From a virus (lineage: Duplodnaviria; Heunggongvirae; Uroviricota; Caudoviricetes), in IMG/VR virus record IMGVR_UViG_2526164633_000032, positions 1 to 39,549 of that record: 39,549 nucleotides of DNA; one strand, 5' to 3'. Of the stretch, positions 33,801 to 36,800 are shown in pieces. Made by a program: the position numbers. The first letter of the stretch is position 1. Each line of letters starts with the position of its first letter.

Positions 33801-36800
33801 CGCTGACTCAATCGTGGGTAACAGCAATCAGGGAGGCCGCCACCACAGGAAAAATCACACCGGCAATTGCGGATGTCGTAAACGACGGCTCTAAATTTAT
33901 GGATGCCTATAAAATGGATGCGGTGCAGTTGCCATCAGCCTATGGGCAACTCAGCTATCGCATGACCTACAACCTGGTATCAATGTTTACCGACCTTGCC
34001 ATCCTTGGGCTGGTGGACCTTAACGAGGTTACGCCGGAATTGCTCAGCATGCGCAAGAATCATGTGGAGATATTGCACAGAATTAACACGGTACTTGCCG
34101 GGCGCACCGATGAAGAGAAACAGGCAGACGCTGATCGGATAAACCTGGCCCTTGGCAACATCACGGAGGAAGAAATTGCCGCCAGAAACGAGAAACAAGA
34201 AGAGTTATCATCAATACAGGGTGATGCCACCAGCATAGCTCAGTCTCTTGGTCTGAATTATCGCGTATCCACCGCCGACCTGAAGATGATGTACGCACCA
34301 AAATTCGCCGCTGGCGAGGTATTTGGGCTTCAGGAAGCCTCCGGCATGAAAGGGGTTCTTTTCCGCGCGAAAGACGCAATCAAGGCGAAATTCGGCGCTC
34401 GCTGGTTGCCAGCGAAGGCGAAGAACAGCGACTTCCCAGGTAACTGGTGGATTATCGAGACAAAACACAACGTGGCGGACGTTCTGGCCGTCATCCAACA
34501 ATACGCATAACAGGAGCGCCCGGTTCGCCGGGCGTCGCATAATATGGCCACACTATCTGATACAATAAAACCGAATAAAACATATCTTGAGGCGGTACTC
34601 CGTACAGCGTTGTTAGGAAAGACAGAAGACGAATACGTTGATTTCTTCCTGTCAGGGCTACGCGGGCGATTACTGAAAAATCCCCGCCTGTACCGCAGCT
34701 ATGGTCCATACTGGCCGGAAATTAAAAAATTATTACTGGAGCGCGGTTATGGTAATTTCGGTCGTCTCGTTGACCGTGACGTTCGCAAAATTTACCGTTA
34801 TGACCGCCCGGCGCTAACACTCATAGCCGCGACGCTCTACAGCCAGGAGCGTTTTGATAATGGTCAGATATACTCAGCCTGGCATTTACTGCCAGTGCCT
34901 GAAGAAGTTGACGACCAGGACTATGAGTTTGAGTCTTACGATTTGGAAGTTGAAGCCTTGGCACAGGCTGGAGAGAAAACTTGAAAAAGCGATACTACAC
35001 AGTAAAGCATGGGACGCTACGAGCATTACAAGAGTTTGCTGACAAGCATAACGTTGAGGTGCGCAGGGAAGGGGGAAGTAAAGCTCTGCGCATGTACCGT
35101 CCGGACGGGAAATGGCGTACAGTCGTCGATTTCAAAACAAACAGTGTTCCCCAGGGCGTCCGCGACCGGGCATTCGAAGAATGGGAGCAGATCATCATAG
35201 ATAATGCATTGCTTCTCAATGCTGATTGAGTTTTGTTGGCCCGGTTTGCACCGGGCGTTTCACAAACAATCAACTGGTTTGTAGTTCCTGCGGCGAGATG
35301 AATTATTAATATTATCGTGGTGCCGATGATGCGATAGCCTGTATGATGTTATCAATATCGTTATCGTTCAGCATGAATATAGGTACACCATTAGAGTTTG
35401 CATTTTTTTCAGTGCTCATCAAACAAAGCCCCTCATACATGCCGCGAGTTTTTTTGAAATTGGCGACTGATGGAGTGGTGTAATTTCCTTTAAAGTGCAT
35501 TCCGGCTGATTCATAAAAAGGAACCAAATCAGACTGGCAAATCAAAGCGACCTCATTTGGAAATGCAAGTATTTCTGCCAGTATATTACTTCCAAGTCCA
35601 TTACCACGATATTGCTCATATACATATATTTTATGACAGTACAACGGAAAATTTCCCGATGGATGTCCGAAGATTAAGGCGTATCCGAACAAGTTTTCTT
35701 CATTAGTAAAGCCCATAATGCGCAAATGACCGGCTCGGTAACACTCTTCAAAAACGTTAATTATGTAGCTTCTCGCTGCTTTCAGCTCCTCTTCTGTCGG
35801 GAACATCATCAACCCCATAAGCGATGGAGTATAGGCCAGATCCTGAAGAATCCCATTAGCTTCATTTTCGAAAATTAGCGGTAAGTGCGGAACAATTTCA
35901 TTTGCCGAGGTATTAGACATAGTATGGTGAGTCCTTTGTTTTCAAAGGACTCATGTTATCAGTGATAATCGTTTGTTGTAATAGTGTTGATAAAATAATT
36001 TTCTATTATGTAAGCAAGCTCATTTTTATGACGGGTAATGCAAAAAAAATAGAATCAAAAAACTAAAAAATAATAACTCATGGGGTTTTACACCATCAAA
36101 AGTCCCCACTATAAATTATTAGAAATAATTATGCTTGCCTGTTAATACCCCTTTCGGCACTTTTTTTGTTCCAGTGTCTGGGTACCCAGAATTATGTTAA
36201 TAAGTGGACTTAGTAACGATGGTTCCTGGCGGGCTTCAACTTCTCCAGCCATTGCCCTGATGTAGTCGGCGCTGGCAACGTTGTTGTATTCCGTCGCAAA
36301 GCAACATAGTAACGTCAGAACATGCTCTGTCGTTATTTCGCTCCAGTTGATGTTGAAAAATTCATCGCCTTTTTTATCGTGTTCGGAATCGAAGATGCTT
36401 TGGTGAAGGATGTATTTGCCGGATTCCTTGCGCGGTAACTTGATCGCTTTCTGGCGTTCCAATTCCTTGTAAATCTGCATTGCTTCAATCAGTACCGGTC
36501 TGCCGTTCATGAAGGGATCACGCAACCTTACACGCTGGCCAACTCGACCGGTAATAAAGCTGTTTTCCTCTTCCACCAGCACGATAAAACCCTTTTCCTC
36601 TTTTTCTCGCAATTCGCGCAGCAGCTGGAGTTCCATATCGCGGCGGCGTTCAGGGTAGCTGGTCCGCTCAGCCATTATCAGCTCATTGTTGATCCATGCA
36701 GCAGTCATTGACGCCGGTTTGCCGACGCTCATTGAAACAACGCATATTTTCTTATCCATAGCGCCCCTACAAAAAAGAAAAGCCACCAGCGGCGGCTTAG

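Follow-up and report, generated by a model that had tools for sequence, protein, structure and literature searches.

What is the protein encoded beside a GNAT acetyltransferase gene in a phage P1-like genome, and what does it do for the element that carries it? The question is raised by IMG/VR virus record IMGVR_UViG_2526164633_000032 (Caudoviricetes), of which a stretch of 39,549 nucleotides was analysed; this whole stretch is referred to here as the window. An initial annotation, made from the sequence alone, had described the product of this open reading frame (ORF) as an unassigned, charged and EK-rich protein of 205 amino acids (aa) with no recognisable motif, and had suggested that it was either the native gene at the mat position or the partner of the GNAT gene. 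We are highly confident that the ORF is mat, a known gene of the P1 family and part of the backbone of a P1-like phage-plasmid in Escherichia coli DEC12B, with the gene model as corrected below. That is to say, mat is an already known gene and ordinary backbone.

The ORF is real, opening on the minus strand with an ATG (MDKKICVV...) and running for 205 codons to its stop; an automatic ORF listing places the start further out, at a GTG at 36786, giving 214 aa. In a BLASTP comparison 193 of 204 residues (95%, E = 2e-147) were identical to residues 38-241 of P1 Mat (YP_006475.1), a clear match of the kind that the initial annotation had itself said would make the ORF ordinary backbone. Nor is the protein unassigned, as the same 205-aa sequence is named 'maturation control protein' in NCBI (WP_001436325.1 / EHX37700.1, from E. 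coli DEC12B), and the window corresponds to contig AIHB01000004.1 from the DEC12B genome. The likeness extends to the DNA: a megablast against phage genomes showed 98% identity to P1 from window position 36173 upward through ref, c8 and cre, and the P1 features under that match include 'mat' and 'ref'. The P1 gene order cre, c8, ref, mat is kept, the neighbouring proteins being Ref, C8, Cre, Ulx and an Lxc-like protein, and the operator and promoters Omat, Pmat and LPmat are identical to those of P1. Moreover, phrog_1837 (function unknown), to which P1 Mat also belongs, matches residues 1-203 of the ORF (E = 2.7e-107). Of the two suggestions, the native mat-position gene is thus borne out by the P1 Mat match and synteny, and the partnership with GNAT falls on the distribution data given below.

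The remaining descriptions in the initial annotation were fair. Charged residues make up 30% of Mat, which is rich in E (11.7%), K (7.3%) and R (7.8%) with D at 3.4%; the net charge is 0 and the charged residues cluster in helix 39-55. The GC content of mat (47.4%) lies within the range of ref (51.5%), c8 (44.9%), cre (50.6%) and ulx (47.4%), in keeping with the claimed resemblance to the backbone, and that of the GNAT gene is 40.4%. Pfam, NCBIfam and PADLOC likewise hold no model for this Mat protein, which is nonetheless named and known. The window copy differs from that of P1 in four respects. P1 Mat is annotated with 250 aa, the first 37 of them an extension that falls out of frame in the window; the last ~14 residues follow the 3′ end found in RCS47, SJ46 and 673R5 and not that of P1; the gene is frameshifted at a run of seven A, giving 205 aa and removing the tail VPxGxLTGKxNx[LF]; and the GNAT gene stands downstream of mat where P1 has EcoP1 res/mod.

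In P1, mat is the classical gene 1, with a 'particle maturation' phenotype. It is listed as essential from amber mutants, CRISPR interference (CRISPRi) knockdown of mat gave an efficiency of plating of 0.28, and mat, 25 and 26 are all 'missed' essential genes of the CRISPRi screen (PMC10695390). The efficiency of plating and the 'missed' status of mat are consistent with a requirement for Mat at low dose.

The gene model needs correction at both ends. An exhaustive HMMER search yielded 91 family representatives at 50% clustering, and the 59 full-length ones, single-domain proteins of 183-246 aa, were aligned. The P1 reference record starts Mat 37 codons upstream of MDKKIC, giving 250 aa. We take the ATG at 36759 as the real start because all 59 diverse representatives begin M-x-K-K-I, down to ~20% identity, because most database Mat entries are of 213 aa, and because the extension is out of frame, varies by indels between lineages and passes through a terminator-like hairpin. 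In the window the frame is broken by GGGG just before the ATG, against GGGGG in P1; the extension is also out of frame in phage 673R5, and homopolymer indels lie behind both cases. We therefore rejected a P1-style 250-aa product, whose extension is broken in frame and absent from the 59 representatives. The P1 reference gene model is probably too long.

At the other end, canonical alleles encode 213 aa and finish ...LEQKKVPKGVLTGKHNYF, whereas the window Mat finishes ...LEQKKCRKGY after 205. A run of seven A (A7) in place of eight (A8) swaps the conserved tail VPKGVLTGKHNYF for CRKGY, so that the intact tail motif VPxGxLTGKxNx[LF] is missing from what is otherwise the same gene in a variant allele. 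Direct counts gave A7 in the window, in L006-L009 and in phage 673R5, and A8 in plasmids L013 and L014. An 85-nt probe of the region had no exact match among 69 in PLSDB; the GNAT-type matches among those listed (e.g. H72-H89) aligned 85 query bases with 86 record bases, and complete GNAT-carrying plasmids have a run of 8 A. It counts against the allele that the DEC12B contig is an old draft, in which a homopolymer sequencing error is possible; the same A7 allele in other assemblies argues against such an error. Independent Logan assemblies also contain the 205-aa allele ('20 or more samples'), in one case with other sequence upstream, and we therefore regard A7 as a real circulating allele and reject an origin purely in draft assembly. 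Phage 673R5, which also has A7, carries different cargo, and the run may thus be a recurrent hypermutable site.

The in-frame CAA AAA AAG of the window allele holds a dnaX-type slippery heptamer, A_AAA_AAG, and a computed -1 shift at this heptamer yields precisely the 213 aa of the canonical protein. We rejected the idea that programmed frameshifting is conserved at this run of A, since no slippery heptamer lies in frame in the P1 allele (GAA AAA AGC) and the full tail is read without a shift in most alleles. Because P1 lacks the heptamer, we treat the frameshift as a mutation with possible leaky rescue. The motif xLTGKxNx[LF] is kept at the extreme C-terminus of homologues down to 42% identity, and it falls in the low-confidence part of the structural model described below. 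The model suggests that the tail is probably disordered, and a predicted tail of this kind is typical of a docking peptide. If the conserved C-terminal peptide is indeed a docking motif, the 205-aa allele would probably be hypomorphic, unless the tail is regained through rare -1 slippage on A_AAA_AAG.

What, then, is Mat? Sequence searches gave little purchase. Pfam found no domain in any of the 59 family members, a profile search of PDB sequences returned no significant relative (best E = 0.28, chromodomain proteins), and tblastn with distant family members against INPHARED returned P1-like phages, D6 and JK004 only; judged by this last search, no annotated informative relatives exist outside the P1 supergroup. 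The family alignment served to build an AlphaFold2 model with a mean predicted local distance difference test (pLDDT) of 87 and a predicted template modelling score (pTM) of 0.75, with pLDDT >90 over most of residues 1-160 and one 10-residue block averaging 89. The model runs beta-beta-beta-alpha-beta-alpha and continues with a beta-hairpin and helices, that is, an RNase H-like fold with terminase-type elaborations. Terminases came out on top when the model was searched with Foldseek against PDB and also against BFVD, and three fold searches agree on terminase-type or DNA-packaging nucleases. On this model Mat probably consists of an isolated RNase H-like domain, and the structures nearest to it are those of the nuclease domain in terminase large subunits (T4 gp17, G20c, P74-26, E217, Sf6 gp2, SPP1 G2P, P22 gp2, HK97 and human cytomegalovirus UL89). 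In contrast to these, Mat is a protein of ~213 aa that stands alone, without the N-terminal ASCE packaging ATPase domain and without sequence similarity to them.

Three points weigh against the mechanism that we build on this fold below. The template modelling scores (TM-scores) to the terminases are modest at 0.4-0.5, and we therefore speak of the same fold class and not of proven homology. There is no sequence-level link between Mat and the terminases, Pfam giving none and hhalign of the Mat profile against P1 PacB giving a probability of 0.1, that is, no relationship. Lastly, the catalytic residues discussed below were mapped by secondary-structure register and not by superposition in three dimensions. 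Other carriers of the fold are more distant. RuvC-type resolvases (RuvC, Ydc2/Cce1, poxvirus A22-like and MOC1) scored lower than the terminases, their DEDD set is incomplete in Mat and there is no sign in Mat of dimeric resolvase features; the RuvC/YqgF-like pseudonuclease factors TEFM and Spt6/Tex offer a fold lead only, their biological context differing from that of Mat. In BFVD we also saw several further short stand-alone phage proteins with the fold, among them A0A482MK23 (163 aa), A0A3G8F2B2 (175 aa), UPI0008A09D91 (191 aa) and Q9G0I4 (247 aa). Stand-alone copies of a terminase-nuclease-like domain, of 160-250 aa, may by these predicted structures be more widespread than annotated.

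RNase H-like nucleases cannot do without an Asp at the C-terminal end of beta1 (D7 in RuvC, D401 in T4 gp17). The corresponding residue 9 of Mat (in ICVVSMSVGKP, at the end of beta1) is S in 26, T in 15 and C in 9 of the 59 sequences, and these contain no conserved acidic residue in beta1 (residues 3-12). An acidic pair at the end of beta4, D/E63-E64, is retained (95% D/E at position 63 and 100% E/D at position 64), and D and N are freely exchanged at positions 124 and 138, P1 having N138. The family thus lacks the catalytic acidic triad that includes the beta1 Asp, which points to a pseudonuclease, with a non-canonical enzyme as the most that could be expected. Moreover, P1 PacB is a full-length large terminase subunit (TerL), matching phrog_2 over residues 32-473 with a weak C-terminal alignment to Sf6 gp2. 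On this match we rejected the possibility that the P1 terminase is split and that Mat supplies its nuclease half. Because PacB is already a full-length TerL, Mat is an extra terminase-nuclease-like protein.

As to function, we infer that Mat is a non-structural or very low-copy factor with an RNase H fold that serves the last step of virion assembly. The fold almost always works on nucleic acids or on their machinery. We tentatively favour a mechanism on the head and DNA side, which we put somewhat short of an even chance, because the predicted fold mostly acts in this way, because its best matches are packaging nucleases and because the mat promoter is also an early one. On this proposal Mat would be a non-virion or very low-copy pseudonuclease that, as headful packaging ends, binds DNA rather than cutting it or else attaches to the packaging machinery. 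It might control the terminal headful cut, release the terminase or cap the DNA end; any of these would leave filled heads competent to join tails and would explain the 'particle maturation' phenotype. In line with a non-structural role, Mat goes unmentioned in the main text and the accessible supplement of the P1 virion proteome paper (PMC9024508).

Gene order speaks for the tail. In all seven non-P1-type loci (L003, a metagenomic phage; L011, an 85-kb P1-like contig with C1, Cre-like and Ref genes; L012, a contig of a Shewanella metagenome-assembled genome; L015; L016/17, two Salmonella plasmids; D6; and the Cronobacter phage JK004) mat is followed directly by homologues of P1 genes 26 and 25. 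In L003, L011 and L012 the mat stop and the gene 26 start share 4 nt (ATGA/GTGA), a sign that the two may be translationally coupled. Mat could accordingly be a factor for tail assembly or completion, a chaperone or cofactor of the 26/25/7/24 module that makes tails competent for heads, its RNase H-like fold being incidental. The gene 25 product is labelled 'tail stability', and mat shares its 'missed' status in the CRISPRi screen with both 25 and 26. In addition, gp26 is T4 gp53-like (baseplate wedge) and gp24 is the tail terminator, while the roles of gp7 and gp25 are unknown and non-structural cofactors are expected (PMC9024508). These linkages count against a role at the head, and they are answered in part by the fold searches, all three of which point to DNA-packaging nucleases. 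To our knowledge no tail or baseplate protein or chaperone has the fold of Mat. Moreover, in both P1 and the window mat is unlinked from genes 26 and 25, which are absent from the window and lie elsewhere in the genome, and it has its own promoter, which is also early; being the first gene at the boundary of operon and cargo, it stands where linkage is least informative. On balance we consider a tail-side role, the chief rival to the head-side proposal, rather unlikely.

A second alternative keeps Mat at the DNA and makes it an active nuclease with a non-canonical site, either a debranching enzyme or Holliday-junction resolvase or the enzyme of the headful cut. The debranching and resolvase role in packaging has its models in T4 gp49 and T7 gp3. 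The replacement of the beta1 Asp by Ser, Thr or Cys with no other conserved acidic residue in that strand, the D/N exchange at 124 and 138 and the nuclease domain that PacB already supplies all tell against it, and we hold this to be improbable.

How mat is expressed bears on both the head-side proposal and a third alternative. Every annotated element of Omat, Pmat and LPmat (36889-36957) is base-for-base identical to P1, and the late-promoter-like element of the initial annotation turns out to be P1's LPmat. Judged by these elements, the dual promoter is a C1-repressible sigma-70 promoter combined with an Lpa-dependent late promoter, and mat is reportedly expressed early as well as late. Between promoter and ATG lies a leader of ~120 nt, structured over 36771-36880, whose terminator-like hairpin and U-run end 11 nt before the ATG. 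A GC-rich hairpin with a U-run, of differing stem sequence, is found 15-35 nt 5′ of the mat ATG in 7 of 8 lineages, including loci in which Mat is just 25-42% identical. RNAalifold on four lineages, too few sequences for statistics, showed the 5′ stem kept with a few G-U or compensatory changes; Rfam assigned the leader to no family, with a single sub-threshold snoRNA match that we take as chance. The module of promoter, leader and terminator accompanies mat whatever gene is upstream, be it ref in the window or a HigB/helix-turn-helix (HTH) pair in L016, and this mobility suggests regulated read-through or insulation from upstream cargo. The leader may act as an attenuator, mediate promoter-specific antitermination or shield mat from transcription that comes from upstream cargo.

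Mat might, in keeping with the name 'maturation control', be a regulator of transcription or RNA, for example a TEFM- or Spt6-like elongation or antitermination factor acting on its own leader terminator and on the downstream late tail operon. The TEFM/Spt6-type matches are far weaker than those to terminases, no DNA- or RNA-binding motif was detected in Mat, and if Mat regulated tail genes one would expect a tail-less phenotype and not the 'particle maturation' phenotype ascribed to mat. We consider a regulator very unlikely. Returning to the head side, the proposal may be stated in full: Mat would be a stand-alone, catalytically dead terminase-nuclease fold that acts as a DNA-end or terminase-exit factor, through control of the headful cut or T4 gp2-like capping, and licenses head-tail joining, its expression being gated by a leader and terminator passable only from its own dual promoter. 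Taken with all of its parts, this composite is doubtful.

The distribution of mat and of the GNAT gene in plasmids leaves no sign of the co-variation that the initial annotation had considered. Of the PLSDB plasmid records, 694 contain mat-like DNA, with coverage of 80% or more of the gene in 653; for the GNAT gene the figure is 22. In different P1-like elements the slot 3′ of mat is occupied by GNAT, RelA/SpoT-domain or SIR2-family genes, by EcoP1 res/mod (in P1) or by other genes. Homology to P1 stops within the last ~14 mat codons and that to RCS47, SJ46 and 673R5 just past the mat stop codon, and we therefore place the cargo junction at the mat 3′ end. GNAT is independent, rare cargo and mat is backbone. 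That the ORF is itself cargo and the functional partner of GNAT, for example in a toxin-antitoxin or defence pair, has in its favour only adjacency and a common strand in the window, and is hardly credible given the 694 against 22 records on which we rejected it, the other neighbours of mat elsewhere (RelA/SpoT, SIR2, res/mod or tail genes), the spacer of 221 bp at 29% GC with a drop in GC from mat to GNAT, the failure of PADLOC to match either protein (GNAT has no NCBIfam match either) and the cargo boundary itself. With that boundary at the mat 3′ end, the GNAT gene is cargo on its own. In P1-like plasmids the slot that follows mat (Table 1) is a cargo hotspot (plasmid matches H22-H51).

The interval between ref and mat appears to be a second variable slot. 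A ref or Ref-like gene is still just upstream of mat at 25% Mat identity, and the interval holds different genes in different lineages (Table 1). An insert with genes for a metallo-beta-lactamase-fold hydrolase, an AraC-type regulator and SnoaL cuts ref short in some mat-GNAT plasmids, and in SJ46 Tn1721-blaCTX-M-27 is inserted between ref and mat (PMC5241659). Elsewhere in the window, an ORF for a DarB-like protein of 1825 aa with helicase/SNF2-type Pfam hints follows the ulx and lxc homologues, and its relatives in related plasmids are annotated 'N-6 DNA methylase'. P1 DarB is longer than 1825 aa, and the domain content of this version may differ from it.

Table 1. Coordinates of mat, its control region and neighbouring features in the window, and of the corresponding features at other loci.
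Feature	Sequence	Location	Strand	Basis or remark
mat coding sequence, 205-aa frameshifted allele (canonical 213 aa)		window 36142..36759	-	ORF; P1 Mat match
Homopolymer, one A short of canonical A8 (A7 at 36161-36167)	C-A7-G	window 36160..36168	-	sequence counts
Out-of-frame remnant of canonical C-terminal coding region	VPKGVLTGKHNYF + stop	window 36119..36160	-	comparison with canonical alleles
Shine-Dalgarno-like element	TAGGGG	window 36764..36769	-	4 nt upstream of ATG; direct sequence reading
P1 Mat N-terminal extension region		window 36760-36869; P1 NC_005856 2716-2826	-	overlaps leader and terminator
Intrinsic-terminator-like hairpin in mat leader	AAGCCGCC-GCU-GGUGGCUU then UUCUUUUUU	window 36771..36798	-	terminator scan, RNA fold
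Conserved leader stem, 10 bp, around two small hairpins	GCCCGGUAC.../...GUACCGGGC	window 36820..36880	-	RNA fold, z = -2.4
Pmat/LPmat dual promoter		window 36889..36919	-	identical to P1 NC_005856 annotation
-10	CAGAAT	window 36889-36894	-	same as P1
LPmat late -22 box	AAGTGACTT	window 36899-36907	-	same as P1
Pmat -35	TTGACA	window 36914-36919	-	same as P1
Omat, C1 repressor operator		window 36940..36957	not assigned	overlaps end of ref; same as P1
ref		window 36948-37508
c8		window 37754-38065
cre		window 38116-39147
Slot downstream of mat		window 35312-36141
DarB-like ORF, 1825 aa		window 29033-34510	+
mat-26-25 locus		L003 6746-9925
mat-26-25 locus		L011 10001-12194
mat-26-25 locus		L012 2450-4602
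mat-26-25 locus		L015 6001-8320
mat-26-25 locus		L016 6001-8306
mat-26-25 locus		L018 (D6) 4998-7495
mat-26-25 locus		L019 (JK004) 4998-7733
ref-mat slot, HigB/HTH toxin-antitoxin pair		L016 3518-5813		Salmonella plasmids
ref-mat slot, Tad2-like protein		L015 4011-5843
ref-mat slot, icd/ant/simB-like genes		L018 (D6) 1184-4715
ref-mat interval		L007 16-2207
ref-mat interval		L014 2933-3086
Equivalent leader		L016 5868-6003
Equivalent leader		L019 4865-5000
Equivalent leader		L015 5878-6003
Equivalent leader		L018 ~4930-4975
Equivalent leader		L011 ~9965-9990
Equivalent leader		L003 ~6700-6725

The predicted terminase-nuclease-like fold without the key catalytic Asp gives a first structural clue to mat, a P1 gene whose function has been a puzzle ever since its genetic definition. 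The circulating allele with its frameshifted C-terminus is a possible ready-made natural mutant, and the conserved, terminator-containing leader may control mat expression. The corrected model (MDKKIC start, 213 aa), the frameshift allele, the fold lead and the leader are all open to standard P1 genetics. If the full head-side proposal were true, it would give a mechanism to the 40-year-old 'particle maturation' gene and would define a new class of terminase-derived pseudonuclease assembly factors.

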